A model generated the notes under the pieces. That model ran no database searches, was not told the DNA's origin, and worked only from the letters and a program-made list of their open reading frames with translations. This document shows, one piece after another, positions 1-51,290 of a stretch of DNA of 51,290 bases. Made by a program: the position numbers and the translations under genes. Location: the IMG/VR virus record IMGVR_UViG_3300009826_000027; one strand, given 5' to 3'. Numbering within the stretch: position 1 is the stretch's first letter; every line of letters begins with the position of its first letter. The DNA comes from a virus.

Positions 1-123
1 CCCTTCTGAAAATCGACGAGGTATCCGCTTGTCTACATATATCGGAGAACTTGCTCTGGATATGATAGTCGATGCGCCGCCGCGAGCACTACCTTGATAT
101 TTAGCATGTAATGCCGCGATACC
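1..123. repeat. Terminal direct repeat, left copy (identical to 51168..51290). Indicates a circular or circularly permuted genome closed by assembly overlap.
   Basis: Bases 1-123 (cccttctgaaaatcgacgag...atgccgcgatacc) recur verbatim as the last 123 bases of the window. The repeat lies inside an ORF and keeps its frame. Confidence 0.95.
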
Positions 124-1941
124 ATTGTCTCTTGCTGATTGTCTATAGTCCAAATTATGTTTTTCGGCATCAATTACAACCATAGAATGTCTAACCGCTC
201 TTGCTATTTCGTCTAAGTCAGCACCCTTAATAGTCATGTCTGTAATCAGATTGGATACGACGCCCATTTGTTTTTGTTTATTTGAGGGCGTTATTGGGCG
301 TATATTCGATCCTTCGGAAATTTTATACGATTCTATTGGATCGAATTGTGCCAACGATCGTAGTGCAGCCGAGGTCCGTACTTTACCGCTATTGTTAGGG
401 ATGACCAAAACCGTATCCCCATCAAAGTCTGCTCCCGACAATTGTCGGGCTACGATTGGATTTATACCAATCGCATCCGCCGGATCTGAACCCATAATAG
501 ATCGACCTTCTCTTGACTTATTATTTACTACCACTTGTGGTATTTCAAAGGTTCCTGCATGTGGATAGCGAATTAAAACCACCCTTTCGCCATCATTAAA
601 GCTGGGTGCATAAACTTCATTATTTTTTAGCGACGGGACTGGTAACAATACTTTTGTGGCTTGTCGAGGTAGTCCAGCGGCAGCTAGATGGCCGGCAGCC
701 GAATCCGCACTATCGGCAAATGCCATCAAAAGCTGTTTACGAACCACGGGATTTGTCAAAGCTTGAATTTCTTCAAATTCGGCCCGTTTACGACCGACGG
801 TTATATCTATCTGCTGTTGTACTAATGCGGCCGGTTGTTTTGATAAGAATTGGGAGGACAACACGTTTGACCATTCTTGCCAAGCTCCCTCTTCGCTGGG
901 CATGCTAGAAGATCCGATAATATTTATAGCGCCACTTTGTCGACCGATGGATGCGCCAAAAGGATTGTCTTGATCAATCGCTCCCGTTGCGGTACGTTGT
1001 AAAGGCTTCATGGCATCCAATTTATTACCAGTGTCTATTCTGGCACTATTATAAATCACATCTACTCCGCTTGGTAAATTATCACTATAAATGGCCATGC
1101 CCTTCATATAATGCGTGCCATCAACGCCGATACGGACTTGTGCATATCGAGATTTACCCATATCAAGATCTGACACGCCTCTACGTATTTCAATGACGCC
1201 GTCTTTAGACTTTCCGGCTTCTCCATAGCGTACTTGAATCCGGGCGGAATCCAACATCTCAATCGGCCTAATACCAAGATCGGAGAAATTGCGACCAAAG
1301 TCTTCGGATATAGCTGTTATTGGTTTGACAAGACTGACATCATTGATTAATTCTCGCCATTCCGTATCCGGCGCACCTAAAGCTTTAACAATCGTAAATT
1401 GTCCAGGTATTCCAACTTGAGGTACTTTTATCGAATGTAATTTATAGCCATGACTCTCTGTTAAAAGAGATACGGCAGTATCCAATCGAGTTGGCGACAT
1501 ATTTAATTGATTAGCGACACCTTTACCGACGTCGATGAATCGTTTTTGATCTACTTGGTCTTTTAGCATGGTCATAGTCGCATTTGTTATCTTTGCCCGC
1601 TCAGCGTTAACAGGATTTAGACGAAGTCGCACCGTTGATTCTGGAATCCCCATTCTATCTGCTATCGCTCGGCTAGACATACCACGAGCTTGAAGACGAA
1701 CGGCCTCTGCCGTTTCGCCAAGAATGATTTCATCTTTAGAGATAGAATTTCTAGCTCGATATTGATTTATCGATATCCCTTCGGCCCTAGCTATATCTCT
1801 TTCGGACATACCAGAAACTCGTAATAGTTCTACATGCCCGCGCCACCCTATCGAACGTTGAAAAGGGTTTTTACCAGACCCCCAGGGATAGCGACCAGAA
1901 CGTCTAGGTTGACCGATATGCGCTAATACATTTTCGCTCAT
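1..1941 (-). CDS. Two-barrel (YonO / RdRP-like) single-polypeptide RNA polymerase, N-terminal 647 codons. The ORF has no stop before base 1 and continues in frame at 51167 (887 aa in total).
   Basis: My own translation from ATG 1941..1939 (MSENVLAHIGQPRRSGRYPWGSG...) is open to base 1. The segment 415-582 encodes VVLIRYPHAGTFEIPQVVV..AIGINPIVARQLSGADFDGDTVLVIP, matching beta-prime [45 protein letters not shown] at 1096-1113 resembles beta HGNKGV. Tandem HTH-like segments lie at 1753-1812 and 1621-1683. This ORF is absent from the supplied track because it lacks an in-window stop. Confidence 0.75.
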   Translation of the reverse strand, partial: MSENVLAHIGQPRRSGRYPWGSGKNPFQRSIGWRGHVELLRVSGMSERDIARAEGISINQYRARNSISKDEIILGETAEAVRLQARGMSSRAIADRMGIPESTVRLRLNPVNAERAKITNATMTMLKDQVDQKRFIDVGKGVANQLNMSPTRLDTAVSLLTESHGYKLHSIKVPQVGIPGQFTIVKALGAPDTEWRELINDVSLVKPITAISEDFGRNFSDLGIRPIEMLDSARIQVRYGEAGKSKDGVIEIRRGVSDLDMGKSRYAQVRIGVDGTHYMKGMAIYSDNLPSGVDVIYNSARIDTGNKLDAMKPLQRTATGAIDQDNPFGASIGRQSGAINIIGSSSMPSEEGAWQEWSNVLSSQFLSKQPAALVQQQIDITVGRKRAEFEEIQALTNPVVRKQLLMAFADSADSAAGHLAAAGLPRQATKVLLPVPSLKNNEVYAPSFNDGERVVLIRYPHAGTFEIPQVVVNNKSREGRSIMGSDPADAIGINPIVARQLSGADFDGDTVLVIPNNSGKVRTSAALRSLAQFDPIESYKISEGSNIRPITPSNKQKQMGVVSNLITDMTIKGADLDEIARAVRHSMVVIDAEKHNLDYRQSARDNGIAALHAKYQGSARGGASTIISRASSPIYVDKRIPRRFSEG

Positions 1942-2498
1942 GTTACGCCCTCCGCCTTTAATCTTTCAATATGCTTGTCAGATTCTACTATTTTGTTCAT
2001 TATAGAAAAGATTTCTTCCGGCAAAGGATTATGTATTATTATTTCATCAGATTGGTAAATACGTAGTTCAGCTTCGATTTCATCAGGCTGATAATCATAT
2101 TCCAAACAGAATATTGCCATGTACACCATCAATTGTCTCATCGACGCCGGAGTTTCTCCAGATTTATAATCATGTATCCGAAGAAAATTCTTTTTAAAAG
2201 AAATGGCATCTGCAGTACCAAAACAATTATCGGAATAATATAACGGTTGTTCTGTTATCATGCGATAGCCGATAGCATCGTTCACGTACATATTTAATGT
2301 ACGCTTTGTCCGAGGGAGTCGCTCCTTCAACTCAATTAATTCGTGCGCCAATTCATGAAGTCGCGTACCTCGAAAACTGGCTCGATGTTTAACGTATCGG
2401 TCAGTTAGTTTTTCCGGAGTGTAATTAACCCAATGCGATCCGCTAGGGGCAAGAAATGCGTGCTCGCCTCGAAGGTGAGAATGCGAGTTGAAGTTCAT
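1938..2498 (-). CDS. PD-(D/E)xK (Cas4/RecB/DUF2800-like) nuclease
   Basis: Motif GTADAISF...LRIHDYKSGE fits the D...(D/E)xK pattern. I placed the start at an internal ATG (MNFNSHSHLRGEHAFLAPSGSHW) preceded by AAGGAGG 7 nt upstream. Its TGA overlaps the RNAP ATG (ATGA at 1938-1941). Confidence 0.6.
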   Translation of the reverse strand: MNFNSHSHLRGEHAFLAPSGSHWVNYTPEKLTDRYVKHRASFRGTRLHELAHELIELKERLPRTKRTLNMYVNDAIGYRMITEQPLYYSDNCFGTADAISFKKNFLRIHDYKSGETPASMRQLMVYMAIFCLEYDYQPDEIEAELRIYQSDEIIIHNPLPEEIFSIMNKIVESDKHIERLKAEGVT

Positions 2499-2760
2499 CC
2501 AAAATGTCCTCCTTGTTTTCAGGACAAACAAATGATGCAAACGACATATTATCTAACGTGTCGACATAATACTTCTGATTAGGTTGTCGACGTGCAGTAA
2601 TATTTCGTTTTACTTCAAGTGCCGCCCATGTGTTTTTGTACAAAATTAATAAATCCGGTATTCCCTGTAAATAGCCCTCATCATTTTTTAATACGATGCA
2701 ACTTGGAAATAAAGCTTTAATCTCTTTTATTAATTTCGCCTGAAATACTCTTTCAGTCAC
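2443..2760 (-). CDS. VRR-NUC-type PD-(D/E)xK nuclease (Holliday-junction-resolvase-like)
   Basis: GIPDLLILYKNTWAALEVKR fits the PD...ExK motif. The GTG start at 2760 is preceded by AAAGGAGG with a 5-nt spacer. The longer track ORF would read through a terminator hairpin. Confidence 0.6.
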   Translation of the reverse strand: MTERVFQAKLIKEIKALFPSCIVLKNDEGYLQGIPDLLILYKNTWAALEVKRNITARRQPNQKYYVDTLDNMSFASFVCPENKEDILDELQLAFSPSRRARISCP

Positions 2761-2773
2761 GACGGCCTCCTTT

Positions 2774-2805
2774 AAAAAAAAAAAGAGAAGAGCCATTCTC
2801 TTCTC
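2774..2805 (-). terminator. Rho-independent terminator-like hairpin followed by T11
   Basis: Minus strand reads gagaagag-aatgg-ctcttctc followed by ttttttttttt. It lies between the helicase stop and the VRR-NUC ribosome-binding site. Confidence 0.6.
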
Positions 2806-2806
2806 C

Positions 2807-2832
2807 TCTATTAGAGGCCGTGTTTTTATTGC
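2807..2832 (-). promoter_or_regulatory. Conserved 26-nt motif, copy A (minus strand GCAATAAAAACACGGCCTCTAATAGA)
   Basis: 25/26 identical to the copies at 14604-14629 and 18663-18688. All three are intergenic or overlap a stop codon, and all are in the same orientation as the genes. Confidence 0.5.
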
Positions 2833-2842
2833 AGACTGATTT

Positions 2843-4003
2843 TTAGGAAAATGTATAAATATTTTCATTAAAGCTTTGCTTATTATCGAATGCTTTTCTA
2901 ATATCGCGATCGATCGATGAGCTTGATATTAGATGATAATAATACAAATCGTTAAATGGAGTATTAAGTCGATCGATTCGCCCAGCCGCTTGAGTGCGAA
3001 TTTTATAAGAATAATGTTGGGAATAAAAAATCATCGCATCAGTTGTAATGCATTCCCAGCCTTCCGCGCCAGCCATATATTGTACGATATATAACCACTT
3101 TTCGGTGTCTGGTATTTCTTGATGTTTATGACCGTTCCATTCGCCAAGTGGTGTTCGAGTTCTTTCTGCTAGCTCTATTAACATATCTCTCTCGTAATTA
3201 AAATTATAAAAAATTATTAACCGAGGATGTTTTCGCATAAGGCATTCTATTGTATAGGTTCGTCTCGGATCACTATTAACTATACGCCGTAGTACATGAC
3301 ATAATTCGCCAACATCTTTGATAGGTTCTTGTTTATATACATGCCATCGCTCTATGGCGGCCATACGATATAAGTCCATATCATATGATACGGGCACATA
3401 CTTTATATGATGTTTTGTACGGATCCGATACTTCATCATAACAGTAACCTCTTGTCTACACTTCATAAGTCGACCAACCTCAATATATCGATCTATCTTA
3501 GGATATTTAGTGAAGGTGTTCCATACCACATGTCGACGAATAAACTCGGTCCGGTTCTTATAGAGTTTATTTGCGATGAAGACCGGGATATAATCCATCC
3601 ATGTATCACCAGGTGTTGCGCTGAGAAGTAACCAAGTATTAGTCTTAACGATCTCATGAAACGATTTCACCCAAGCGCCGCTACCAACTAATCGTTGCTC
3701 GTCAAAAATGAAAAATGCATCTTTAATCCTTATATATTTACCGATATTATTCCACGAGTCCACTACGATATCCGTATTCAGTAAATCGAATATCGCGCAT
3801 TCTTTTAACCACTCTTTATCATCTCGCTTTTTAGCTGTAGTGATAATATAAAGTTTTTTTAATCTATTGTCGATACGCTCATTATAATAATAGTAATAAA
3901 GGGCGGTTCTAGACTTACCAGAACCAACCCCACCTACCAAGATCTTACCTGACGACAGTTTATCTATGACCTCTTGTTGATGTTGTAACAAACTACGTGT
4001 CAT
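2843..4003 (-). CDS. SF2 (DEAD/SNF2-like) DNA helicase
   Basis: Walker A GGVGSGKS, motif II FDEQR, motif III SATP, motif VI QAAGRIDR. The start is probably ATG 4003 (MTRSLLQHQQEV); the track starts at an upstream GTG at 4027. Confidence 0.8.
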   Translation of the reverse strand: MTRSLLQHQQEVIDKLSSGKILVGGVGSGKSRTALYYYYYNERIDNRLKKLYIITTAKKRDDKEWLKECAIFDLLNTDIVVDSWNNIGKYIRIKDAFFIFDEQRLVGSGAWVKSFHEIVKTNTWLLLSATPGDTWMDYIPVFIANKLYKNRTEFIRRHVVWNTFTKYPKIDRYIEVGRLMKCRQEVTVMMKYRIRTKHHIKYVPVSYDMDLYRMAAIERWHVYKQEPIKDVGELCHVLRRIVNSDPRRTYTIECLMRKHPRLIIFYNFNYERDMLIELAERTRTPLGEWNGHKHQEIPDTEKWLYIVQYMAGAEGWECITTDAMIFYSQHYSYKIRTQAAGRIDRLNTPFNDLYYYHLISSSSIDRDIRKAFDNKQSFNENIYTFS

Positions 4004-4532
4004 GACGACATGCGCCTTTTGATCCACAGTTCATCCCGCAATTTGCACATAAATCTTCACCAATGGAAACTACATCATTCTCTGGTGCATCCATGTATTT
4101 TTGTTCAAACTCATCCTCAGTAATTGTGACGTACATCGACTTAAGGTATGCTTTTACTCCTTTACCGCCATTGGTTTCCCAATTATACGGTCTGATAATC
4201 AAATCGAGATTATCTATATCTGCCCAATCAAGCATTTTTATAGTGTCGTCATCAAGAGCAGTTTTACCTCTACTTGTAACCATTATTACTTTTGGGGGAA
4301 AACGGGAATCGAAGGATACCGCTACTGGCAAATAAGCCTGGGAATCATCCTGTTCATCCCGCGGCTTGAGTTCTCTTATATTCCATCCGTCCGACTTTAA
4401 ACTTGATGCCGTCTCGTGATCAAGTACTACACAAAAGTTCTTTGTATCTTTCGGGTTATATTTACCTTCTTTGCCCGAAAAATTCCTAAATATGATACGT
4501 GCATTTTCTATTATAATATTATTTGTAACCAT
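3993..4532 (-). CDS. Putative ssDNA-binding protein (T7 gp2.5 / DUF2815-like OB fold) with a Cys-rich C-terminal tail
   Basis: The pattern ENARIIFRNFSG...NFCVVLD...GWNI...DLIIRPYNWETNGGKGVKAYLKSMYV resembles gp2.5-like SSBs, and the gene sits in a DUF2800/DUF2815/helicase/VRR-NUC type module. The tail is CANCGMNCGSKGAC. Confidence 0.45.
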   Translation of the reverse strand: MVTNNIIIENARIIFRNFSGKEGKYNPKDTKNFCVVLDHETASSLKSDGWNIRELKPRDEQDDSQAYLPVAVSFDSRFPPKVIMVTSRGKTALDDDTIKMLDWADIDNLDLIIRPYNWETNGGKGVKAYLKSMYVTITEDEFEQKYMDAPENDVVSIGEDLCANCGMNCGSKGACRHDT

Positions 4533-4543
4533 GATGATTCTCC

Positions 4544-7500
4544 TTAAACTGTCAAAGTGAGGCCCTCACCGGACCCTATTAATTTACAATTTCCACAATC
4601 TTTAATACATCCAGGAGGACAACCATGCGCACACCATGGTGGCACATTATCGTCTTCCATTGCTAAAAACCATTCAACATCGCCGAACTTTTTCAATGCT
4701 GCTATGGCGTCGTCGACTAAAGCATTAAAATACCCAAAATCAATCGAGTTTTCCTTCTCTAAAGTTTTTACCATCGCTTCTTCTAACCATCGGTAACCTT
4801 TACTACCGGTAGCGGCATTATATTTACCGTCTTTCTCTCTAAGTAGTATGCCGCCGCCATGATTAGGATAAATTGGACAGAATGAACCAACTTTTCCAAT
4901 TAAACGATATGAATGTTCGCCCTCGGGCAAATCCTCGTTCATATCTAAATACAGAGCAGTAGTGACCGTCTTTGTCTCACATAGATCTTTGAAATTTATT
5001 GGTCCAAAGCATGGGATTCCACGACCAGTCACATATCCATCCTTAAATAATGTCTTAAATACATAAGGATGTATCATTTGCGTTCCTATGGCATACCATT
5101 TGTTCTTTTCTTTACCGACATATACCGCGTCGTTCAACAAACAAAACTTACTATACGTTTTTTCATGCTCAAACGTATAGCCGTACTTTTTACCAAACTC
5201 AAAAATAAATTGCTTAAGTTCTTCGGTCGGATTAACAATTTTAATTGAATCGGTTTTAATGTGTATTACTTTACCTCCTCTCTCTGTTACTTGATGCATT
5301 AGTTCGATCATAAATAGCGCGCCGCGTTTAGCAACTATATTGTCTTTATTGCCCGGCACTGTGAACTTGCTATCAAAATTTTGTTTTGTATAGCCATACA
5401 CAGAATTAAGAACTATCTTTAACGCATATGCTAACTTTTTCATGCCAGTATCATCACTAATATATTTAGCAAAAACGCCGTCTAAAATTGTCGCTACAAG
5501 TTCTAGATCGTCATGTTTGATTCCTATACGTCCGTCAAGAACCTTCTTAAACTTTTCGGTATATGGACCGAATAAATTCAATTCTACTAAACTTGTCGGA
5601 TGCTGTGAGGCGATGTCATATTCATATACATGAGTATACATGCCGGGCATCGCATGCACAAAGCCTCCCTCGCCGACCTCTATGTCGCGATATATACTTT
5701 TACCACGGTCATGAGTGTACCCGGGAAAGAGCGTGCTTAAATCCGTATACACAAATTTTTCTTGTGGTCGTGGATCGGTTCCAAACAAAAATCGCGCAAT
5801 ATGATTCTGAGTTGTATCGTTTACTGACAACCCACTTAAATCCGATAAAATTTGTCTAGCTGTGAAATCCGCTTCTCTGGCATAGAAAACCGCTTCCGTA
5901 GCCACCACATCATTTATACAATAGTCAGCAACAAGTTGCCACTTTTCTTCGGGCACAGGTTCGTCCCACGGCAACCCAAGTTCTTGATGATGGATGCCAA
6001 GTTCTATTTCCCATTTCTTTAATCCTTGCTTGACGGAAGAAAAGTCATAGATATCCGTATATGATAAATTATATGCTTCACCAAAGAAGCAATTCTTACT
6101 ACCATTAACTATCTTCTGACTAAGATCGTAAATTTGAGCGAGATCGTAACCAATGTATCGGGCATATAAAATATGATTATCATATCTTCTACAGTTAAAT
6201 CCAACCAATTTAAACTGTAACAGTCGCCCAATATCTTCTGACGAAGGATTAATCATTGTAACGGCTGGTTTATCTGTAGTCTTCCACACAACTACTAATA
6301 GATTAGGAAAAACCTCGACGTCATAGAATAACAATTCATCAAACTCCGATTCCATCGGTTCACTAATTACTTCCGATGCAAAATGCATCTTATTGACAAT
6401 CTTTATTGCTGTTTCCGATTGATTTGAAGAATTATTTGCAAAGGCGAGGATTTTTGGTCGTAAATCTGTCACATCATATCGTACGCCGGTATTATATGCA
6501 TCGTCTAATATTTTTTGCATAAAGTCAACGTTAGATTTGGTGCCTGGATGAATCTCTTTTTTTAAAGCTTTGGTTATTAATGCTCGAAGATGTTTTTCAT
6601 CATTAACCACATCAACATTAATCATCTTTTCTCCTTTCAATGGCAGTCCACTATTGATCGTGAGTATTGGGGCATTGTTACACATAGTGAGTTTTCGTCG
6701 AAGCGATGCTTTACCAGTAAAGACTTTTATTTCTATACCTTCCGAATACACTCGACTAAGTCTGTTTGTATCTCCATCATATACATAATGAAGATGTATA
6801 CCGGTGCCACTTTTACTATACTCTGCATAAGTGACAGGCCATTTACTCGCCGCTTCTAAATTCAACATTAACGATTTATTACCATCACCATCTGTTAAAT
6901 CAAAATCTATGACTATATGATCCTCTGGCGGCTTAACGTAATGAAGCCTTCGAGGATTAATATTTGCCAGATTTGTTTTCACCTCGTCCCAACGCGCTAT
7001 CGGCGTACCTTCATCATTAGCATACTGTGCTGGACAATCAGCAAATAACTTGTCAAAATTTGATTCTTCTTGTTCTATCACCAAAGATAATGGCTTTTCT
7101 TCTATCATTTCTTCGGCAACAAACTTTACCATTTTAAACCCAATATAATAACTTCTTACCTCCCGACCGTCCACACGGCTTCGTTCTTTAAAATCTTCAA
7201 AATATGATTTTAACTCGTCACGAAATTTATGCCGTGGCAGTCGATATTCAATTAGTGCTTCCTCACAATATGTTTTATACATTGCGTAAGCTTGTACAAG
7301 TGCAACGCCGTCTTGTTCTTTAAACGTATGATAATTAGCTTCAACAAAGTTAAAGAATGTATCCGTTTGATACATCATCGTCAAAGGACGATATCCACTA
7401 TAATAATTTTTACCCAATCGTAAATATGCCTGTAAACATCGCCATGCGATTGCGCCGAGCTCGAAGTTTATTTGATTTATTAAAATATGATACTTTTTAA

Positions 7501-8446
7501 CTGGTACTAATCTCCCGCTCGGTGTTACGTCAATTAATCGCCGAATGACTCCCGATTTTGAATCGGTAATCCGAACAGGTTTATTTGTGCCCATAAAAAG
7601 AAAACAATTAGTACGGGCTGTATAAGCTGCCTTATACTTTTCATTCATTGTCATAAGTTCGTGGGCCACGATCGAATTTAACTTAGAGTTATCCTCAATC
7701 CTGGATAAGTCGCCATCATGCTGAATAGCGACCAAAGGATTATTACGAAATACTTCGGTTGAAAACGCATTTGACGAGCTTGTTAGCGCTTTCGCCTCAA
7801 ACATCGTATAATATCCTTCAAACAATTTCTCTAAAATATTAAGAAATGTCGATTTACCACTGCCCGCTTCACCGTATAATACCACAAATTTTTGAATGTT
7901 TTTTGCTTCGCCGGCTACGATTGCGCCCACGGCCCATTCTAACTTATTTAATTCGTCTGGTTCGTATAAAGTAGTCATTAATTCTTCATACGCCGGACAT
8001 GATCCTTCTTCTAGTGGATACGGTAATCGTCTACTCACATAATCGGTCTTTTTTACTTCCGTATTCACAAAGGTTAGATTATCATCTAGTGGTTGAAAAC
8101 TATCTGGCATCTGTCTAAGAAACGCCCGATAATCTATCCATGACCTCGAAGCAAAATCTTCCATCGCATCGATCAATACCGCCTCAGTATACGATTTTCG
8201 TCTTCTGTTCATATCGGCATCTATTAATCGCGCGACATCGAATTCATCGGTGGACCATAATCCGCGCTCTTCGTCCCATATGGCATAAAACGAATTACCG
8301 CGCACCATTATGTCTTTACTATACTTCACTTTAAAACTCGGACGTAATCTTACGGACGCTATCTCATCGAAGCCCTCATTATCCTTCTTTGTCTTGGTCT
8401 TTTCGATTATTTGATAAAAATCCACAAAATACCTCCTTTCTACCAT
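4544..8446 (-). CDS. Replicase fusion of 1300 aa: D5/P4-like SF3 helicase + archaeo-eukaryotic primase (AEP) + family-B DNA polymerase with 3'-5' exonuclease
   Basis: SF3 helicase: Walker A GEAGSGKS (about 7850-7873) and motif C FMGTN. AEP: IVIDFDL and SKSGTGIHLHY (about 6800-6910). Exonuclease motifs: Exo I FYDVEVF (about 6320), Exo II NCRRYDN, Exo III YCINDV. PolB: motif A DIASQHPTS (about 5600), motif B KIVLNSVYG, motif C IKTDS. C-terminal cluster: CAHGCPPGCIKDCGNC. Confidence 0.85.
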   Translation of the reverse strand: MVERRYFVDFYQIIEKTKTKKDNEGFDEIASVRLRPSFKVKYSKDIMVRGNSFYAIWDEERGLWSTDEFDVARLIDADMNRRRKSYTEAVLIDAMEDFASRSWIDYRAFLRQMPDSFQPLDDNLTFVNTEVKKTDYVSRRLPYPLEEGSCPAYEELMTTLYEPDELNKLEWAVGAIVAGEAKNIQKFVVLYGEAGSGKSTFLNILEKLFEGYYTMFEAKALTSSSNAFSTEVFRNNPLVAIQHDGDLSRIEDNSKLNSIVAHELMTMNEKYKAAYTARTNCFLFMGTNKPVRITDSKSGVIRRLIDVTPSGRLVPVKKYHILINQINFELGAIAWRCLQAYLRLGKNYYSGYRPLTMMYQTDTFFNFVEANYHTFKEQDGVALVQAYAMYKTYCEEALIEYRLPRHKFRDELKSYFEDFKERSRVDGREVRSYYIGFKMVKFVAEEMIEEKPLSLVIEQEESNFDKLFADCPAQYANDEGTPIARWDEVKTNLANINPRRLHYVKPPEDHIVIDFDLTDGDGNKSLMLNLEAASKWPVTYAEYSKSGTGIHLHYVYDGDTNRLSRVYSEGIEIKVFTGKASLRRKLTMCNNAPILTINSGLPLKGEKMINVDVVNDEKHLRALITKALKKEIHPGTKSNVDFMQKILDDAYNTGVRYDVTDLRPKILAFANNSSNQSETAIKIVNKMHFASEVISEPMESEFDELLFYDVEVFPNLLVVVWKTTDKPAVTMINPSSEDIGRLLQFKLVGFNCRRYDNHILYARYIGYDLAQIYDLSQKIVNGSKNCFFGEAYNLSYTDIYDFSSVKQGLKKWEIELGIHHQELGLPWDEPVPEEKWQLVADYCINDVVATEAVFYAREADFTARQILSDLSGLSVNDTTQNHIARFLFGTDPRPQEKFVYTDLSTLFPGYTHDRGKSIYRDIEVGEGGFVHAMPGMYTHVYEYDIASQHPTSLVELNLFGPYTEKFKKVLDGRIGIKHDDLELVATILDGVFAKYISDDTGMKKLAYALKIVLNSVYGYTKQNFDSKFTVPGNKDNIVAKRGALFMIELMHQVTERGGKVIHIKTDSIKIVNPTEELKQFIFEFGKKYGYTFEHEKTYSKFCLLNDAVYVGKEKNKWYAIGTQMIHPYVFKTLFKDGYVTGRGIPCFGPINFKDLCETKTVTTALYLDMNEDLPEGEHSYRLIGKVGSFCPIYPNHGGGILLREKDGKYNAATGSKGYRWLEEAMVKTLEKENSIDFGYFNALVDDAIAALKKFGDVEWFLAMEDDNVPPWCAHGCPPGCIKDCGNCKLIGSGEGLTLTV

Positions 8447-8454
8447 AGTTTCCT

Positions 8455-8740
8455 AAAATGCGTCAAAAAAGTGACGCAATGTCCCTGATGCGTCAAAAAT
8501 GTCAAATGCGTCAAAAGTCACTACGTTTTCAAAAGTTTTTACAAAGAAATTTCACAGAAGAAAACTTCTCTATATATTATATATTTTTACTTTTACTATA
8601 CTATAAAGAAAATAATGACATAATGACACAAATATCTCAAATACACTGGTAAATAGGGCTTTTTGCACGTCATTCACCCCAAATTATTTGACGTTTGCGT
8701 CAAAACCACTTGACACACTGCGTCATTTATTTGACGCGTC
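8455..8740. promoter_or_regulatory. Iteron cluster flanking an AT-rich core; candidate replication origin and/or operator-promoter of the replicase gene
   Basis: TGCGTCA occurs at 8459, 8489, 8507, 8696 and 8719. Inverted TGACGCA or variants occur at 8472, 8688 and 8731. There is a perfect inverted repeat tgcgtca-aaaaag-tgacgca at 8459-8478. The stretch of about 8521-8640 between the two clusters is AT-rich. Confidence 0.55.
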
Positions 8741-10506: not shown

Positions 10507-10669
10507 CGTTATTTCCAAAAGAAGCCTCCATAATAGAGCATCTTTCGGTCGCCATCTCGACGATTTCTTCCTTTTTGAGGCCGTGACGATATTGATAGTC
10601 GTGTTCTTCGCCGTGCTCCTCGACTACGCGTTGGCGATATTCTGACAGTCTTGACACCGCAGTTTCCAT
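10490..10669 (-). CDS. 59-aa protein that duplicates an internal 29-aa segment of the 299-aa membrane protein (not in the track, which cuts off at 60 aa)
   Basis: Sequence is METAVSRLSEYRQRVVEEHGEEHDYQYRHGLKKEEIVEMATERCSIMEASFGNNDDGIC*. GGAGA lies 6 nt upstream of the ATG. The ORF reads the 89-bp repeat in the same frame as 10758..11657. Confidence 0.45.
   Translation of the reverse strand: METAVSRLSEYRQRVVEEHGEEHDYQYRHGLKKEEIVEMATERCSIMEASFGNNDDGIC
10552..10640. repeat. 89-bp perfect direct repeat, copy 1
   Basis: ccatctcgacgatttcttcctttttgaggccgtgacg...cgcgttggcgatat is identical to 11171..11259. Confidence 0.95.
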
Positions 10670-10757
10670 GAAAGTTCTCCATTATCAATAGTATAGGTCC
10701 GGATAATCGTAGATGTCGCGGCACTTGAGACCGGACCCCATAAACTCAAGTCCGCTA

Positions 10758-11657
10758 TCATATCTGATCGTAAATCAAGCCGTCCACATTGAAATCGAGA
10801 AGCAATCTATTAATATGACCATTTACAAACTCTCGGTTTTTGATCGCTAATCCGTTAAAAATTCCGAAGTCAATATGGCCATCGCCTTCTCCATCGTGTG
10901 TCCACCCAACAACGGAGGCTTCCGATGAACGCGGAATCCCCAGTAAATCGTATACATCGTTTAGGAATACATGCCCTCGGGCAATGAGAAGATTATTCGC
11001 ATACTTCTGCTGTGCCAAAAGAAACATGTGATTATATTCCTGGTTCGACGACCATTGAGAACAAGTCTCGTCGAACCATCGAGCATAGATCGATGGTTGA
11101 TCGAAGTCGTCGGTAACTGGCGTATAAACTTCTTTTTTAACCGCCTTTTCTTTACCTTTTTCGTCGGCTACCATCTCGACGATTTCTTCCTTTTTGAGGC
11201 CGTGACGATATTGATAGTCGTGTTCTTCGCCGTGCTCCTCGACTACGCGTTGGCGATATGCAGTAAACCCCCGTTCAAGGGCCTTGTATGCCGCCGCCAT
11301 AGCAACATTGCGACCATGCATTATCTTGTATCCATTTCCTATGAGGAAAATGGATAATGCGGCCAAACTCACAGACGGACCATAGAGCTTGGCTAATTCT
11401 ATGCCAAAAGTAAAATACTGCTTTGTGAGTGCTTTTTGGCGCTCTTTCTCGTCATGGAATTTGGTATCTGAGACGGCCAACAATCGATCTTGATGTTCGT
11501 CAACTACGTCATCAAGTTTTCTTGTGGCGATAGCCGCGGTTACTCCGGCGCCAAGTAATCCAGCCGTGCCCGCCACGACTGCTATCGTAGGGGCATGTTT
11601 TTGCAGGACGAGTCCTGTGCGACCTAGGGTTGATAAAATATTAGTAATTACTTGCAT
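10758..11657 (-). CDS. Membrane protein (2 predicted TM segments); paralogue of 16665..17387 (DUF6353-like by recollection)
   Basis: Hydrophobic segments are PTIAVVAGTAGLLGAGVTAAIA and GPSVSLAALSIFLIGNG. The C-terminal module is LNDVYDLLGIPRSSEASVVGW...IDF. Confidence 0.6.
   Translation of the reverse strand: MQVITNILSTLGRTGLVLQKHAPTIAVVAGTAGLLGAGVTAAIATRKLDDVVDEHQDRLLAVSDTKFHDEKERQKALTKQYFTFGIELAKLYGPSVSLAALSIFLIGNGYKIMHGRNVAMAAAYKALERGFTAYRQRVVEEHGEEHDYQYRHGLKKEEIVEMVADEKGKEKAVKKEVYTPVTDDFDQPSIYARWFDETCSQWSSNQEYNHMFLLAQQKYANNLLIARGHVFLNDVYDLLGIPRSSEASVVGWTHDGEGDGHIDFGIFNGLAIKNREFVNGHINRLLLDFNVDGLIYDQI
11171..11259. repeat. 89-bp perfect direct repeat, copy 2 (inside CDS 10758..11657)
   Basis: Identical to 10552..10640. 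Encodes YRQRVVEEHGEEHDYQYRHGLKKEEIVEM. Confidence 0.95.
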
Positions 11658-12223: not shown

Positions 12224-12890
12224 TGCTTTCTCCTCCATTTCGTTGAGAAAAATCTCGCTTTATTTTTTCCAGACGGACGGATCGGCTTAGGAAGCAATCT
12301 GCACATAGATGAGCGCCTCTTTGTGATATAACCCATCCATCCCACGAGATACACCTCATATAATCGTCTAGATTTATTCTTTTACTGCATTTTACGCACG
12401 TCGCTCTAAAATCCCAGGATATCTTTTTGATGCGGTCACCGCGATCGTGTAACATACAAGAAAAAACCGCTTGCTGCTCCGCGTTCATCTTATCCCATGC
12501 AGCACGTGCACAAATACTATACTTACAAATACCATCTAAATCGCATTGAGCACACGGACAAATTGTCTCCGGCCAGTCGACAAGCTCGATATCGTCAAGT
12601 AGATCATCTACCAGGCGACTAATTTTTATAGGTATGTTAAAGCTATCGACCAACGCAGCTATGTCAAAGCTGTCGACTAACACATTATCGTCTTTAGTCG
12701 CATATATCACTTCGATAAGGGCCTCTAAGTTTTTATTATCCGATAGGATATCCGGACTCAATACTGATGTATGGATGTTATGGGTAATCCATTCGGCACA
12801 ATGGTGAAGCGTCGCCGCCATCGAACGTCGATTTCGCTCTCTCTCAAAATCGTTTTTTGGCGGATCGTATAGTTTGTATATTTGTATCAT
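12216..12890 (-). CDS. Cys-rich hypothetical protein (224 aa)
   Basis: ORF with several CxxC-type pairs (CPCAQCDLDGICKYSIC, CVKCSK, CADC). Confidence 0.6.
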   Translation of the reverse strand: MIQIYKLYDPPKNDFERERNRRSMAATLHHCAEWITHNIHTSVLSPDILSDNKNLEALIEVIYATKDDNVLVDSFDIAALVDSFNIPIKISRLVDDLLDDIELVDWPETICPCAQCDLDGICKYSICARAAWDKMNAEQQAVFSCMLHDRGDRIKKISWDFRATCVKCSKRINLDDYMRCISWDGWVISQRGAHLCADCFLSRSVRLEKIKRDFSQRNGGESNE

Positions 12891-12903
12891 GGTTTATTTC
12901 CTT

Positions 12904-13569
12904 TTAATCTATTATTATAGGTTTCGGGAGGGATACTATATATCCCCCACGAACTCTTGATACGCTTGCTGAGCGTAGATCATCCCATCCATATTTATAG
13001 TCCGACGAAGTCCCAGAGATGCCGAGTAAATCATAAAAGTCGGCGATCGTGACTTGGTCGTATTCTCTAATGAGATCTGTGAGATGGGATAAGACGTCCT
13101 CAGCTTCTCTCCGGGATTCAAGGACAATCTCGTCAAATCGATGTCGCGATCGTCCCTCTCGGGAGATATCACGACTTCTGTTAGAATCCCGTTTATCATC
13201 ACGGGAACGATGCATGGAGTCATAACTTACATATCCTCCTCCAGAATTACGCGAACGACTTCGCGGCGCGCGACCGCCAAATAGAAACATTTCTGCTCCT
13301 CCGCCGATAATCGCGAATAATAAATTTTTTATCTCGGGAATGATGACCTCTGTGAGAATATAGCTCCCCACCGTTTCGCCATCACTCTCGAGAAATGCAT
13401 CCGCCGCCTTCTGTCCAAAGCCAACTTTTCGTCTACTGACTTTACCCTGGACGATTTTTTGTACGGCTCTTGGTTCGACGGATACTTCATCCGTCTCTCG
13501 CTTAGACTTTTTACTATTAGACGGATACTGCGCTGCCAAAGGGTTGTTATTCGTTCGGTTTTTACTCAC
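12904..13569 (-). CDS. Hypothetical protein with an Arg/Ser-rich disordered centre and a C-terminal YDLLG..GW module
   Basis: GTG start preceded by GGAGG 7 nt upstream. The C-terminus reads IADFYDLLGISGTSSDYKYGW, similar to the modules in 10758..11657 and 16665..17387. Confidence 0.6.
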   Translation of the reverse strand: MSKNRTNNNPLAAQYPSNSKKSKRETDEVSVEPRAVQKIVQGKVSRRKVGFGQKAADAFLESDGETVGSYILTEVIIPEIKNLLFAIIGGGAEMFLFGGRAPRSRSRNSGGGYVSYDSMHRSRDDKRDSNRSRDISREGRSRHRFDEIVLESRREAEDVLSHLTDLIREYDQVTIADFYDLLGISGTSSDYKYGWDDLRSASVSRVRGGYIVSLPKPIIID

Positions 13570-13575
13570 ACGTTT

Positions 13576-13665
13576 TTACCTCCGTGTCACATGTCTAATA
13601 AATAAATATATAAGCCATAACCCACCGGTGATTATGGTCATGAATATATGTCCTAACATCTTCAC
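13576..13665 (-). CDS. Possible 29-aa single-TM peptide
   Basis: My translation gives (V)KMLGHIFMTIITGGLWLIYLFIRHVTRR*. AAAGGAGGG lies upstream. It is very short, so the call is tentative. Confidence 0.25.
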   Translation of the reverse strand: MKMLGHIFMTIITGGLWLIYLFIRHVTRR

Positions 13666-13772
13666 TATGGAGCCCTCCTTTCTCGCTCTCGATGATGGGC
13701 AAGTTCGGTTCGCAAATATCCAATATAGGCGCCTATAACTAGCGCCATTATGATCCCTAAATGTTTATTCAT
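13665..13772 (-). CDS. Possible 35-aa single-TM peptide
   Basis: My translation gives MNKHLGIIMALVIGAYIGYLRTELAHHRERERRAP*. AAGGAAGG lies upstream. Tentative. Confidence 0.25.
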   Translation of the reverse strand: MNKHLGIIMALVIGAYIGYLRTELAHHRERERRAP

Positions 13773-13788
13773 TAGATGACCTTCCTTT

Positions 13789-13974
13789 CTAGTACCGACG
13801 AGCGATTCCTTTATCCTCATCGATTTTTATCACGACATTTTCAGCTGTGATATCCATGCGAATTAGATGGTCCGCTCCGGGTATACTAACGTCGAAATTT
13901 AATTTCGGCACTACCACCTCTGCCTTTTTGTTTACTAGCAGAGACAAAAATATTTCTGATATGATCTTTTTCAT
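13789..13974 (-). CDS. Hypothetical small protein (61 aa)
   Basis: ORF with a TAATG overlap to the upstream gene. Confidence 0.45.
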   Translation of the reverse strand: MKKIISEIFLSLLVNKKAEVVVPKLNFDVSIPGADHLIRMDITAENVVIKIDEDKGIARRY

Positions 13975-14180
13975 TATACCTCCTCGTTTAACCAGAGTTC
14001 TATCGCCAACTCACAACTACGCGTAGGGAATCGCTCTTTGTCTTGACAACTGAATCTACCCTTTTTGTTGGACGCTAGCACCTTAAGGTCCGTTTGTATG
14101 TGTCTAAAACGAAATCGATTTCCAGTGTATAATGGGCATGCGTAACACGTCTTAGCATGTTGAAAAATATATCGCGCCAT
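13974..14180 (-). CDS. Hypothetical small Cys-containing protein (68 aa)
   Basis: ORF containing CYACPLY...C...C. Confidence 0.45.
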   Translation of the reverse strand: MARYIFQHAKTCYACPLYTGNRFRFRHIQTDLKVLASNKKGRFSCQDKERFPTRSCELAIELWLNEEV

Positions 14181-14200
14181 ATTTTTTAGATATACCCCCT

Positions 14201-14230
14201 CAAAAAAGGGAAGTGGACGATCCCACTTCC
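14201..14230 (-). terminator. Rho-independent terminator
   Basis: Minus strand reads ggaagtgg-gatcgt-ccacttcc followed by cttttttg, directly after the stop of 14244..14576. Confidence 0.65.
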
Positions 14231-14243
14231 AACTATATTAGAT

Positions 14244-14576
14244 TTAATAATGTACTGTTGCGTCATCATTGTTTTCAAATACTTCTATAAATCCTTTATC
14301 GATCTCCTCTTCATTAATAAGACTTTCAAATGTGCCTAGCATACTCGAGAGCTTTTCCAGCAGTTCAAAGTTCTTGCTCATTCGATCTGCGGCTATTCCG
14401 GAAGCGACGCCAGCAAGACCCCACTTCCCGACCTCACATGCCACCTTACCAAAAGTGGTTGTTAGCTCAGGAAGATTGTGTTTCACCAACTGCTTCACTA
14501 CATAACCAACCCCGACCGACGTCGCAATCATCGCCGTTATTTTAGCTCCGAATATAACCTTATCTCGAATTTTCAT
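14244..14576 (-). CDS. Hypothetical membrane-associated protein (110 aa)
   Basis: ORF with hydrophobic segments AKITAMIATSVGVGYVV and GKWGLAGVASGIAA. Confidence 0.55.
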   Translation of the reverse strand: MKIRDKVIFGAKITAMIATSVGVGYVVKQLVKHNLPELTTTFGKVACEVGKWGLAGVASGIAADRMSKNFELLEKLSSMLGTFESLINEEEIDKGFIEVFENNDDATVHY

Positions 14577-14603
14577 AATGCCTCCAATAAATTTTTATAG
14601 TAT

Positions 14604-14629
14604 TCTATAAGAGGCCATGTTTTTATTGC
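14604..14629 (-). promoter_or_regulatory. Conserved 26-nt motif, copy B (minus strand GCAATAAAAACATGGCCTCTTATAGA)
   Basis: Overlaps the TAA of 14623..14958 and lies about 28 nt upstream of ATG 14576. Confidence 0.5.
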
Positions 14630-14958
14630 GCCGACGGCCATTCAATCGCATTTGTATCTTCTATTAACGCTCTTAATAGATATAAATAATTGAGATGGTC
14701 TGTAATCTTTTCTTCCCACATCGCGAGGGGATATTGTTTATTTTCAGCCGTACCCCGACACATGTCGAATAAGCTAACTGTGTGTTTAGCGAGCATACCT
14801 CCGAGTGCGTTGACTGGTGTTGTACCCTCTAGCGCGGCTGCGACTTTAAAGTTGTGTAGCCTATCTTCGGTTGCGTATTCAGAGGCCTTATTAATCAGAA
14901 CCTCTTTGCATCGTTTATGTTGATGGTTGAATATTTTTTCAAAATTTTTACTATTCAT
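14623..14958 (-). CDS. Hypothetical all-alpha protein, possibly a DUF1599/MazG-like nucleotide-binding fold
   Basis: Only a weak pattern resemblance (KASEYATEDRLHNF...AKHTVSLFDM...DHLNYLYLL). The functional call is speculative. Confidence 0.3.
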   Translation of the reverse strand: MNSKNFEKIFNHQHKRCKEVLINKASEYATEDRLHNFKVAAALEGTTPVNALGGMLAKHTVSLFDMCRGTAENKQYPLAMWEEKITDHLNYLYLLRALIEDTNAIEWPSAQ

Positions 14959-15212
14959 TAGATAATATCTCCTTTCAGATTACGTATCCGGAGTAAAAGT
15001 TGTACGATATCCCGCTTTGTACAATCGCCTACGACGTCGGTTGTAATCGGGACATCGTAACATAATGAGTATTCGCCCTCTTTATCAAACGCTAATACCG
15101 CTAGTTCCATAAGACGGTTTCTGCTCCCATATCCATGCGATATTACACTAGCGCCATATCCATTTGCGAACCGCAGCACATGCAAAATAAGCCCATCGAT
15201 TATCCCTCCCAC
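14958..15212 (-). CDS. Hypothetical small protein (84 aa, GTG start)
   Basis: ORF with a TAATG overlap downstream. No recognisable motif. Confidence 0.45.
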   Translation of the reverse strand: MGGIIDGLILHVLRFANGYGASVISHGYGSRNRLMELAVLAFDKEGEYSLCYDVPITTDVVGDCTKRDIVQLLLRIRNLKGDII

Positions 15213-15952
15213 ATTACTCGCTTCTGTACATACAACATGTCAGTCATCGCCACTATTCTGCGTGAGAAGCTGCTAGTTGTCGAACCACGACTAAATGAAC
15301 GACTAGCGGAACCACCGCCTTGATTATAGACCATCAAGGCGCGATGCCAGTCGCCGTTTTGGCTATCTAATGCTCCGCGTAACCAAAACAAACCAGCCGT
15401 GATGTTGTCATACGGACAACGGAAATCGAGCGGTCGGCCTCGCTCTGCTGTATATGTACTAAAAGCCGAGCGAATAGTTCCGAAATTGCTATTGTTGATC
15501 TGCATCAAACCATAGCTTCTTGTGCCGTTAGACTCTCTAGCTATGGCGCTTGGTCTAAATCCGCTTTCTTGCCATATTAAGGCGTATGCCAGTCGTATAG
15601 GCACCTCATTGATCCTCGCCTGCTCGACGAGATGCCGCTGTAAACTTGACGTAAACGTTTGTTCGAATCGATCAATATATCCCACTCTAGCATTTCCATT
15701 AATACGACATCGTGGTTCACCCGTACCGGTACAGGTGAACCACCTTGGATGCTCGGCATTTATACCGACGTATACATGATATTCCGGTACAAAACGCGAA
15801 TTTGGTCTCCCTACTAAATGGGGGTGTATGATTGTATGGCTGGCCTCGGCCGGAGGGGACAAAATGAGTACTAATAATAGACCGACCGCTATGCCTATAA
15901 GTATCAACATGATACCATAAGCTCTTTCTGCTTCATGATCATTTTTATTCAT
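15200..15952 (-). CDS. Membrane-anchored lytic transglycosylase (SLT domain)
   Basis: N-terminal TM segment IMLILIGIAVGLLLVLIL. SLT motifs are LIWQESGF (catalytic Glu), YGLMQIN and MVYNQGG. Confidence 0.75.
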   Translation of the reverse strand: MNKNDHEAERAYGIMLILIGIAVGLLLVLILSPPAEASHTIIHPHLVGRPNSRFVPEYHVYVGINAEHPRWFTCTGTGEPRCRINGNARVGYIDRFEQTFTSSLQRHLVEQARINEVPIRLAYALIWQESGFRPSAIARESNGTRSYGLMQINNSNFGTIRSAFSTYTAERGRPLDFRCPYDNITAGLFWLRGALDSQNGDWHRALMVYNQGGGSASRSFSRGSTTSSFSRRIVAMTDMLYVQKRVMWEG

Positions 15953-16089: not shown

Positions 16090-16120
16090 CGGACATCCCT
16101 CCATAACTCGATTGTAAATT

Positions 16121-50444: not shown

Positions 50445-51290
50445 TTATTTCAAAGCCTCCATTAAAGTCGAAACAGAGATTCCTAATTGAGCTGCGACCT
50501 CTGCTTGAGTGAATCCTCCTGCTAACATCGCCCTTGCTCTTCCTGTATTAACTTGTGCGAGGGGGGTCTGTCTAGGTGTGGCAAGCTGCTTAACTTGATC
50601 TAGATTAGTATTCGTTAAGATGTCGGCCAATCGAGTAGGACTTATTGCCCCTGCTTGAATGGCCTCCCATTCTCTTTCTGAAATAACAATTCTATCCTTA
50701 CCCGCTCCGGTTCTAGCACGAGCTTCGGCTAATGCCTGATTACGTACTTTAGTAAGAGCATCACGATCGGTATCCAAGGAAGGATTTTCTTGTCGTTTAC
50801 GATTTACAATACTTGTCGCTATCATTTGCGCTTGTCGCTCTAAAGGAGCATTCTTATTGGCGGCATTTAAAGCAGCAGTTAATCTGGCCACTTCAGCGGA
50901 ATAAGTTTGTCTTGCCGTAGGACTATAAGAAGTAGGTACTATTCCTAATGACTCTCGACGCGCACTATTAGCTAAAGCCTTTAAGTTATTGGCAAATCCG
51001 GCATAAATCTCTTCTACATGTTGACCAGAGGATAATATGCGCGCATCTGAGGTCTCTGCCATGCGGGTTGTGCGAGTTTGGGTTTTAACCGTTTCCCCTT
51101 TGGCGTTGACAAAAGATTCCGCAACCACCGTAAACTCTCGTTCGCCTGTATGAGGGTTTATAGGCCCCCCTTCTGAAAATCGACGAGGTATCCGCTTGTC
51201 TACATATATCGGAGAACTTGCTCTGGATATGATAGTCGATGCGCCGCCGCGAGCACTACCTTGATATTTAGCATGTAATGCCGCGATACC
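50445..51290 (-). CDS. C-terminal part of the two-barrel RNA polymerase ORF (240 unique codons, 50445-51167; 51168-51290 duplicates 1-123)
   Basis: Codon phase at 51167 equals that of the track ORF 50445..51128 (both positions are 2 mod 3). My translation gives ...RRFSEGGPINPHTGEREFTVVAESFVNAKG.... A C-terminal HTH-like segment GGFTQAEVAAQLGISVSTLMEALK lies at 50448-50519. Confidence 0.75.
   Translation of the reverse strand, partial: GIAALHAKYQGSARGGASTIISRASSPIYVDKRIPRRFSEGGPINPHTGEREFTVVAESFVNAKGETVKTQTRTTRMAETSDARILSSGQHVEEIYAGFANNLKALANSARRESLGIVPTSYSPTARQTYSAEVARLTAALNAANKNAPLERQAQMIATSIVNRKRQENPSLDTDRDALTKVRNQALAEARARTGAGKDRIVISEREWEAIQAGAISPTRLADILTNTNLDQVKQLATPRQTPLAQVNTGRARAMLAGGFTQAEVAAQLGISVSTLMEALK
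51168..51290. repeat. Terminal direct repeat, right copy
   Basis: Identical to bases 1-123. Confidence 0.95.

Follow-up and report, generated by a model that had tools for sequence, protein, structure and literature searches.

What enzyme is encoded across the ends of a circular phage contig, and from which DNA signals might it start? These questions are raised by the IMG/VR virus record IMGVR_UViG_3300009826_000027, a stretch of 51,290 nucleotides (hereafter the window, always meant at its full length), in which a minus-strand open reading frame (ORF) leaves the left end at base 1. A sequence-only reading had proposed that this frame resumes at the right end and encodes a single-polypeptide two-barrel RNA polymerase (RNAP) of the YonO/QDE-1 branch. 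Single-chain two-barrel RNAPs are minimal relatives of the cellular transcription enzyme, and to our knowledge only YonO, crAss gp66 and the P23-45 enzymes have been studied so far. On sequence and predicted structure, we find that the polymerase is a member of the family typified by ORF75 of Lactococcus phage 1706 (PHROG 4291) and belongs to the same clade as YonO and QDE-1. We also describe a family-specific, promoter-like sequence element, newly found here, which we regard as the putative promoter of non-structural operons in these phages.

An open reading frame across the circular junction

Sequence comparison shows that positions 1-123 of the window are identical to 51168-51290, as had been noted earlier. 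This repeat is an overlap left by assembly of a circular contig, so that the unique circle measures 51,167 bp and the terminal duplicate (51168-51290, to which no strand applies) adds no coding sequence. When complement(50445..51167) is joined to complement(1..1941), a single ORF of 887 codons and a stop results, with zero internal stops, which agrees with the frame proposed from ATG 1941 to TAA 50445. Its 5' part (1-1941, minus strand) is openly translated as amino acids (aa) 1-647, and homologues align with it from residue 1-6; its 3' part (50445-51167, minus strand) encodes aa 648-887 and the TAA at 50445-50447. The ATG at 1939-1941 has a GGAGGG Shine-Dalgarno sequence 7 nt to its 5' side and overlaps the stop codon of the preceding exonuclease ORF as ATGA. 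The identical 887-aa protein is present, unbroken, inside the ENA contig ERZ27257300 k141_3732119 (51,144 bp) and also on a Logan contig from run SRR10512955. Because these independent contigs encode the same protein without interruption, the continuity of the two parts is confirmed, and an assembly artifact, frameshift or stop at the junction is ruled out. The remark that the program-made ORF list misses the gene also fits, since the lister skips ORFs that leave the window ends and shows only a 227-aa fragment at 50445-51128.

Catalytic core, domain layout and family

We modeled the protein with AlphaFold (AF2) from a 72-sequence alignment (mean predicted local distance difference test score, pLDDT, 80.4; predicted template modeling score, pTM, 0.63). 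In a Foldseek search of PDB with this model, the top 14 matches are QDE-1 chains (E 1.3e-10 to 1.6e-8, probability 1.0), followed by gp62 of Thermus phage P74-26 (E 5.5e-7), then by maize and Arabidopsis RDR2 (E 5e-6 to 5e-4) and last by beta-prime/Rpb1 chains (E 4e-3 and weaker). Against the BFVD viral library, it recovers phage entries named "RNA dependent RNA polymerase" and uncharacterized phage proteins, with weaker matches to giant-virus RNAP subunits, LEF-9 and uncultured crAss-type phage proteins. Two double-psi beta-barrel (DPBB) domains around one cleft are predicted from these matches of the model. The additional affinity to crAss gp66 that had been suggested proves weak, with gp66 lying outside the top 50 PDB matches.

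The active site can be read residue by residue. Ruprich-Robert and Thuriaux (PMC2919709) recognized eight residues that are invariant across all two-barrel polymerases, namely D709, R738, K743, R962, P964, D1007, D1009 and D1011 of QDE-1. Their counterparts in the window protein are D247, R270, K280, R458, P460, D505, D507 and D509, none of which varies in 72 close homologues and each of which is kept in at least 97% of 150 cluster representatives sharing 42-56% identity with the query. The same level of conservation is seen in D505-F-D-G-D509, R458/P460/H461, K280-G281 and G560/N564, and its retention at only 42-56% overall identity places it beyond chance. The Mg-binding DxDGD loop takes the form DFDGD, which aligns with DNDGD of YonO and is encoded at 415-429, just as had been read. 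The R-x-P signature (R458, codon 568-570; P460, codon 562-564) stands 47 residues ahead of D505, compared with about 45 in the superfamily (R446/P448 in Rpb1, R962/P964 in QDE-1). The aspartate and two basic residues of the beta-like barrel are D247 (codon 1201-1203), R270 (1132-1134) and K280 (1102-1104), which correspond to D837/K979/K987 of Rpb2 and D709/R738/K743 of QDE-1, in a register that rests on a low-confidence profile alignment and on conservation in both families.

A profile-profile alignment (hhalign) against 48 YonO homologues (E 0.026) puts six motifs in register, each of them invariant in both families: KDG with the TDG of YonO, VRI..YxKGM with VRLP.WxKGL, LIRxPH with LRSPH, ADFDGD with FDNDGD, MGxxSNLIT with IGEISNNIT, and VIDAEKH with xIDYAKT. 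Three motif calls of the sequence-only reading are therefore correct. GTHYMKGMAIY had been taken for the signature of the beta barrel, and its K280 aligns with YonO K271 in the beta-like barrel; DFDGD had been assigned to the beta-prime catalytic barrel, and this region aligns in register with YonO 469-547; QMGVVSNLITD (aa 558-568) had been likened to an element of cellular RNA-dependent RNA polymerases (RdRPs), and its MGxxSNLIT aligns with the IGEISNNIT of YonO. The residue-to-base assignments of that reading hold to within a few codons: HYMKGM does occupy 1096-1113, the full GTHYMKGMAIY extending over 1087-1119, and the peptide quoted for 415-582 does start with VVLIRYPH at 582 but reaches 391 rather than 415. 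Taken with the Foldseek matches and the local match to the YonO family given below, the eight residues bear out the proposal of a single-polypeptide two-barrel RNAP of the YonO/QDE-1 branch.

The polymerase core, spanning aa ~235-620, is flanked on both sides by helix-turn-helix (HTH) regions; the coordinates that follow are all on the minus strand. The N-terminal peptide HIGQPRRSGRYPWGSG (aa 8-23, 1873-1920) is predicted to be disordered, with pLDDT below 50 for aa 1-30, and G10, S15, G16, R17, G21 and G23 within it are at least 97% conserved in the 150 representatives. Its form HxGxxRRSGRYPWGSG is nearly invariant family-wide, including 1706 ORF75 and the P092 homologue, despite the predicted disorder, and it could be a packaging signal, an ejection signal or a partner-binding motif. 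Next comes an HTH pair resembling sigma-70 region 4 (aa 33-110, 1612-1845), detected by Pfam (Sigma70_r4_2, E 3.9e-11, aa 79-108; HTH_23, E 1.2e-10) and modeled as helices at 33-107. In the model, beta-rich segments are predicted at aa 235-345 and 428-515, with helices between and after them, and helical HTH regions at aa 33-133 and 811-887. The first beta-rich segment would be the beta-subunit-like barrel, DPBB-B (aa ~235-345, 907-1239), holding D247, R270 and K280, and the second the beta-prime-like barrel, DPBB-A (aa ~428-517, 391-660), holding R458, P460 and the Mg-binding DFDGD. The catalytic barrel is followed by a conserved helical segment (aa 552-616, 94-288; model helices 552-616) with the motifs MGxxSNLITDM and IDxEKH, in which M559, G560, N564, L565, I566, D568, D591, K594 and H595 are at least 97% conserved in the same representatives; G593, S596, N597, D625 and K628 of YonO are aligned counterparts. 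The C-terminal HTH region (aa 811-887, 50448-50678; model helices 811-886) is matched by HTH_Tnp_ISL3 of Pfam (E 6e-7), and by HTH_28, HTH_24 and HTH_3 at aa 857-887. An NCBIfam scan of the polymerase yielded sub-threshold sigma-factor HTH matches only.

HTH domains are also the only ones to exceed the Pfam thresholds, and most of the 250 phage records described below carry an HTH name, so that one might take the protein for a DNA-binding regulator with a central domain devoid of catalysis. We consider this extremely improbable: across more than 1,000 diverged clusters, conservation is at least 97% at the eight catalytic residues and in other motifs of the core, which is not to be expected of a dead enzyme.

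The family itself is catalogued, widespread and biochemically uncharacterized. The window protein matches PHROG 4291 ("RNA-dependent RNA polymerase") over aa 3-887, against positions 9-906 of the 909-residue profile (E = 0, 1105.7 bits), and a local match over aa 433-568 (E 4.7e-6) links it to PHROG 8308, which a scan of YonO itself identifies as the YonO family. Strict YonO-family membership is not claimed, given that the PHROG 8308 match is only local and the hhalign E-values are weak, and strict membership in the Pfam RdRP family PF05183 was rejected with a score below the gathering threshold. Full-length homologues of 44-51% identity were found by tblastn in 250 GenBank phage genomes, the hosts being led by Arthrobacter (95), Gordonia (55), Streptomyces (54) and Lactococcus (13), and further carriers are phages of Curtobacterium, Microbacterium, Rhodococcus and Faecalibacterium, and human oral siphoviruses. 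In these 250 phages the gene is nearly always the last large one, 300-500 bp from the right end; it is thus a right-end gene in a large supercluster of siphoviruses of Actinobacteria and Firmicutes. At a cut-off of E <= 1e-30, a profile search of 1.84 billion cluster representatives recovered 1,158 clusters (50% identity). Identity to the window protein peaks at 51% among isolates and at 60-61% among metagenomic proteins, and no GenBank phage was matched by megablast of window positions 1-8000. A 2010 paper counted the 1706 protein among five YonO-like families, and Koert et al. (bioRxiv 10.1101/842583) described the HTH-flanked protein with a DxDGD loop as a putative RNA polymerase and as a signature gene of an actinophage/Lactococcus/Faecalibacterium supercluster, with an HHpred probability of 95.7% to PF05183 for the family alignment. 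The view that this branch is rare and poorly sampled in phages hence does not hold: a PHROG is devoted to the family, which has members in 250 GenBank phages and 1,158 clusters and was in print in 2010 and 2021. It is far commoner than was assumed, with hundreds of cultured members, many of them from student phage collections, and the window gene is an ordinary, well-conserved one among them.

The names given to these proteins hide the enzyme in two ways. Most GenBank entries read merely "helix-turn-helix DNA-binding domain protein", and several RefSeq records share with PHROG the name "RNA-dependent RNA polymerase". Taken literally, the latter name would describe an RNA-templated polymerase, or an enzyme that makes primers for replication, rather than a transcriptase. 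The closest structures, QDE-1 and RDR2, are indeed RNA-dependent RNA polymerases, the gene sits among those for helicase, SSAP, nuclease and DNA polymerase, and QDE-1 is reported to use both DNA and RNA templates (PMC9508822). We nevertheless regard such a function as improbable, as Pfam PF05183 is the only source of the "RNA-dependent" name, DNA is the template of YonO and of the P23-45 enzymes, the genome already has a primase-DNA polymerase fusion, and the HTH domains suggest recognition of double-stranded DNA.

A promoter-like element and its genomic setting

If the enzyme is a DNA-dependent transcriptase, where would it start? A repeat search of the whole genome revealed three coding-strand (minus) copies of GCAATAAAAACAYGGCCTCTWATAGAR, at 2806-2834, 14603-14631 and 18662-18690, all of them intergenic and confined to the half of the genome with the non-structural genes; with a 19-mer, 3 matches are found against 0.00 expected. 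The copy at 2806-2834 (CTGCAATAAAAACACGGCCTCTAATAGAG) lies between the helicase gene and the endonuclease-exonuclease-polymerase operon and is followed by a hairpin, a U-run and a ribosome-binding site (RBS). The second (14603-14631) is 29 nt 5' of the ATG of ORF 14244-14576, and the third (18662-18690), preceded by a terminator-like hairpin and a T-run, marks the boundary between structural and non-structural genes. The first ORF after this third copy, 17384-18571 (395 aa), has a WG-containing beta repeat (Pfam PF14903, E 5e-13) and no PHROG match. The extended consensus of about 30 nt reads TCGC-N4-AAAACAYGGYCTMTAATAGAR, then purines, and includes an imperfect palindrome, CCTCTA-A-TAGAGG. 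A first k-mer screen of intergenic gaps (11-mers with at most 1 mismatch, in at least 4 gaps) had found nothing.

The element recurs across the family. It occupies the same gap between helicase and endonuclease in three metagenomic relatives and in Rhodococcus phage ReqiPoco6. A scan of 2.9 M IMG/VR contigs for exact AAAACAYGGYCTMTAATAGA found 12 loci, all in phages of the polymerase's group: at 10 of them the element is in the helicase-endonuclease gap, with homologues of the helicase, endonuclease, exonuclease and polymerase beside it (41-58% identity for the polymerase), and at the other two it is at positions equivalent to the remaining window copies, locus L014 being the counterpart of the 14603 copy. 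ReqiPoco6 has at least seven related copies, TCGCAGAAAAAACACnnnCTATAAT(A/G)AGA, which are intergenic in its early small-gene cluster (12662-20300), one of them directly 5' of an annotated tRNA, and one more copy, at 43852, precedes its endonuclease-exonuclease-polymerase operon. A hairpin and U-run follow the element in most loci when each is folded singly, with weak z-scores, and RNAalifold applied to the element with downstream sequence from the 12 loci gave no consensus structure; a hairpin downstream of the syntenic copy is suggestive only. The element is better conserved than the flanking proteins, in phages whose hosts differ as much as Rhodococcus and the 42%-GC host of the window phage, which argues for a conserved phage-encoded recognition factor, and the HTH-bearing polymerase would be the obvious candidate.

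With moderate confidence, we favor the reading that the gene encodes a catalytically competent, DNA-dependent single-chain two-barrel RNAP of the QDE-1/YonO clade, orthologous to 1706 ORF75, that starts at this element. The enzyme would act as a transcriptase independent of the host polymerase, and its HTH modules would take the place of a sigma factor by recognizing the promoter or DNA in cis. Transcription would begin at TCGC-N4-AAAACAYGGYCTMTAATAGAR and its purines, ahead of three non-structural operons including that of the endonuclease, exonuclease and polymerase. Both parts of the reading have precedents, YonO being a DNA-dependent RNAP and P23-45 gp64 and P74-26 gp62 being promoter-specific phage RNAPs.

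Several observations weigh against it. The Foldseek template modeling (TM) scores are only ~0.3 despite the strong E-values, so that the match of the model should be understood at the level of the conserved core and not of the whole architecture. The Pfam RdRP domain PF05183 matches the DFDGD region (aa 497-551) with E 0.074 and 12.2 bits against a cut-off of 23.8, sequence searches of PDB with the protein and with its 72-sequence profile returned HTH or chance matches only, and the hhalign link to YonO is weak (E 0.026-0.038 over a single sequence, the 48-sequence profile and a 150-sequence query profile). The literature searched holds no biochemical or transcriptomic study of any family member. 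As for the element, it contains a -10-like TMTAAT hexamer, through which the host RNAP could use it, either unaided or together with a phage factor, although its conserved upstream part is too near this hexamer for sigma-70 geometry. Moreover, Gordonia phage Duffington and Lactococcus phages P092 and 1706 lack it or have different repeats instead. Finally, if the element were read by the polymerase only, the polymerase gene would need a first supply of the enzyme. As to the repeats found in these relatives, CTATCACGAAAAAACTTCGGGAAAACTTCGGGATTG occurs two to four times upstream of the polymerase operon of 1706 (L009, 3630-4080), and GGTCAAATCT three times together with CCTAGAATG twice upstream of that of Duffington (L004, 2160-2540); each lineage may have its own version of one kind of signal.

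The problem of first supply would be solved by a virion RNAP, packaged and injected with the DNA, that transcribes the early non-structural operons from the element while the host RNAP serves the structural block, as in an N4-like strategy. N4 and crAss gp66 are precedents for virion RNAPs, and P23-45 gp96 is a further one. In GenBank, ORF75 of 1706 is labeled "structural protein", and since this label is scattered across modules (orf6, 7, 11-13, 17, 20, 21, 62, 71 and 75), it looks like the product of virion mass spectrometry rather than of homology; the ReqiPoco6 record repeats it as "similar to 1706_gp75 structural protein". The element heads non-structural operons including the polymerase's own, whose transcription would need pre-existing enzyme, whereas a non-coding region with a TGTATAAT extended -10 precedes the structural block. 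The conserved disordered SGRYPWGSG peptide at the N-terminus could be the packaging or ejection signal. Among the labeled 1706 proteins, however, are orf62 and orf71, small proteins of the replication module, so that DNA-bound contaminants may be involved. Moreover, the window gene is translationally coupled to the exonuclease in the replication module and not to morphogenesis genes, and known virion RNAPs are much larger or are fused to ejected proteins, whereas no ejection domain was detected in the window protein. Virion association, for which the evidence is the GenBank label of 1706, is possible, but as an account of the enzyme we hold it only tentatively and below the favored reading. 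A fuller version appears unlikely: a self-contained machine in which a two-barrel RNAP with sigma-4-like HTH modules at both ends is carried in the virion, injected, and starts early transcription at a ~30-nt promoter. Were it true, the N4-like strategy would have been reinvented with a cellular-type polymerase fold, with a promoter more conserved than the proteins across host phyla.

The gene order of the window bears on a further alternative. All genes are on the minus strand, along which a 1.35-kb non-coding region (48850-50200) is followed by small ORFs and an HNH endonuclease; by the large terminase, the portal and a protease-capsid fusion (672 aa, protease-major capsid, 42079-44097); by the major tail protein, an amidase and a 2,435-aa tape measure; by Dit, minor tail proteins and a collagen-like fiber; by about 25 small ORFs; by the 1,300-aa primase-DNA polymerase fusion (4544-8446); by SSAP, helicase, endonuclease and exonuclease; and by the RNA polymerase gene and then a conserved 79-aa ORF. 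The earlier statement that the genome encodes no other RNAP subunit agrees with our scan, in which none of the ORFs scanned besides the polymerase is RNAP-subunit-like or sigma-like. Given this order, the enzyme might be a late-gene polymerase in the manner of YonO, whose target is the late operon of SPbeta: expressed together with the replication genes, it would transcribe the packaging, structural and lysis block downstream across the cohesive-end (cos) junction. No large gene follows the polymerase within the early/middle arm, and in a circular or concatemeric form the 1.35-kb non-coding region and the late genes come after it. The sole family-specific conserved element, however, heads non-structural operons and does not occur ahead of the structural block, which has sigma-70-like sequences before it, and this makes late-gene transcription quite unlikely. 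Start of a DNA-dependent enzyme at the element remains our preferred account.

The 79-aa ORF directly downstream of the polymerase (50202-50441, minus strand; PHROG 4303, E 1e-35) is homologous to 1706 orf76. In relatives with defined ends (Duffington, P092, 1706 and ReqiPoco6) no further gene lies between it and the physical right end, and the block of helicase, endonuclease, exonuclease, polymerase, small ORF and genome end is kept in all four of these Gordonia, Lactococcus and Rhodococcus phages. A 3' cos end is annotated after this block in ReqiPoco6, and two metagenomic contigs (L007 and L008) stop ~35 bp past the small ORF. From the ends of the relatives and these two stops, the physical genome end of the window probably lies just below 50200.

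The AT-rich non-coding region 48850-50200, between the small ORF and the first packaging-arm ORF, probably holds the cos site or genome end by synteny, and may also hold an origin or host-type promoters. It contains five 19-bp tandem repeats of ACAAATACAGAAATAAAAA (49183-49277), a 63-bp tandem duplication (49364-49489) in which each copy has a palindrome and one copy carries the extended -10 TGTATAAT on the coding strand, and C-rich tracts near 50150-50170. A scan for sigma-70 promoters and terminators around the junction found 14 sites against 14.1 expected from shuffles. Just 5' of the RBS of ORF 48508-48849 lies a perfect 27-nt inverted repeat with a 51-nt spacer (48903-49007), whose RNA folds at -53.7 kcal/mol (z = -8.8 against shuffles), and a relative (L006) has a similar 30-nt inverted repeat at the equivalent place (8363-8471); at gathering thresholds, Rfam has no match to this structure or to any other part of the window. 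Elsewhere, a 96-nt direct repeat of 97% identity (10545-10640 and 11164-11259), in or beside ORFs 10509-10724 and 10758-11657, is a partial gene duplication, and ORFs 10758-11657 and 16665-17387 are two PHROG 2152 paralogues. The collagen-like tail fiber gene (19838-21448) encodes Gly-X-Y repeats with a 9-nt period, and three repeats spaced by 186 nt (32968-33470) fall within the tape measure gene.

If the HTH modules indeed read the 30-nt element, these phages would possess a very compact promoter-specific transcription system, which would bear on how RNA polymerases and sigma factors evolved and on the annotation of phages, and would be of interest for orthogonal expression. Of the new leads, the most useful are the conserved promoter-like element and the possible presence of the enzyme in virions.

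Comparison with known polymerases

The two-barrel catalytic principle and the DxDGD loop are common to the window protein, gp66 of the crAss-like phage phi14:2 and the beta/beta-prime subunits of multisubunit RNAPs, but gp66 and these RNAPs are far larger or multisubunit, and the beta-prime/Rpb1 matches of the model (E 4e-3 or weaker) have TM below 0.1. Uncharacterized phage proteins, including uncultured crAss-type entries, match in BFVD at E ~6e-4 or weaker. The best structural matches of the model are QDE-1 and the cellular RdRPs (PDB 2J7N and 7Y7T, and plant RDR2; best Foldseek E 1.3e-10). QDE-1 has the same eight catalytic residues with similar spacing; QDE-1 and RDR2, with 11-13% sequence identity and TM ~0.3, differ from the window protein in being eukaryotic RNA interference enzymes without HTH modules.

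Among phage enzymes, Thermus P23-45 gp64 and P74-26 gp62 (PDB 8F5M) are likewise single-chain two-barrel siphovirus RNAPs, of the non-virion kind, and they are promoter-specific, recognizing a promoter motif of their own. The model matches gp62 with E 5.5e-7 and TM 0.40 (normalized to the target); these enzymes have ~590 aa, 13-14% identity and an unrelated genome context, and their paper describes no HTH modules.

YonO of the Bacillus prophage SPbeta, a 134-kb temperate phage, is an experimentally proven DNA-dependent RNAP that transcribes the late operon of its phage. Like the window protein it is a single chain of ~840-890 aa in which the beta-like barrel comes before the beta-prime-like one, and the two have six colinear motifs in common (DG, VR..KG, RxPH, DxDGD, GxxSNxIT and ID..K). 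D249, R266 and K271 of YonO align colinearly with D247, R270 and K280. As in YonO and QDE-1, the first basic residue is an arginine in the window protein, and there is no equivalent of Rpb2 E836, its place being taken by K246; the spacing from R to K is 10 residues compared with 5 in YonO. No Pfam domain is on record for YonO, which matches only its own PHROG and NCBIfam families, whereas both ends of the window protein carry HTH modules. YonO homologues have invariant C-terminal cysteines (C799, C802, C816 and C819), in contrast to the window protein, which is without a cysteine cluster and ends in an HTH.

The genome of Lactococcus phage 1706 has ~20 genes colinear with the window and a terminase of 59% identity. 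Its ORF75 (ABV91282.1) is an orthologue with 37% identity over the full length (E 1e-180), and is 142 aa longer through insertions; the actinophage proteins are 44-51% identical to the window protein. SGRYPWGSG, HTH modules at both ends and DFDGD are all present in 1706 ORF75, Duffington gp91 and ReqiPoco6 YP_009012687.1, just as they are in the window protein.

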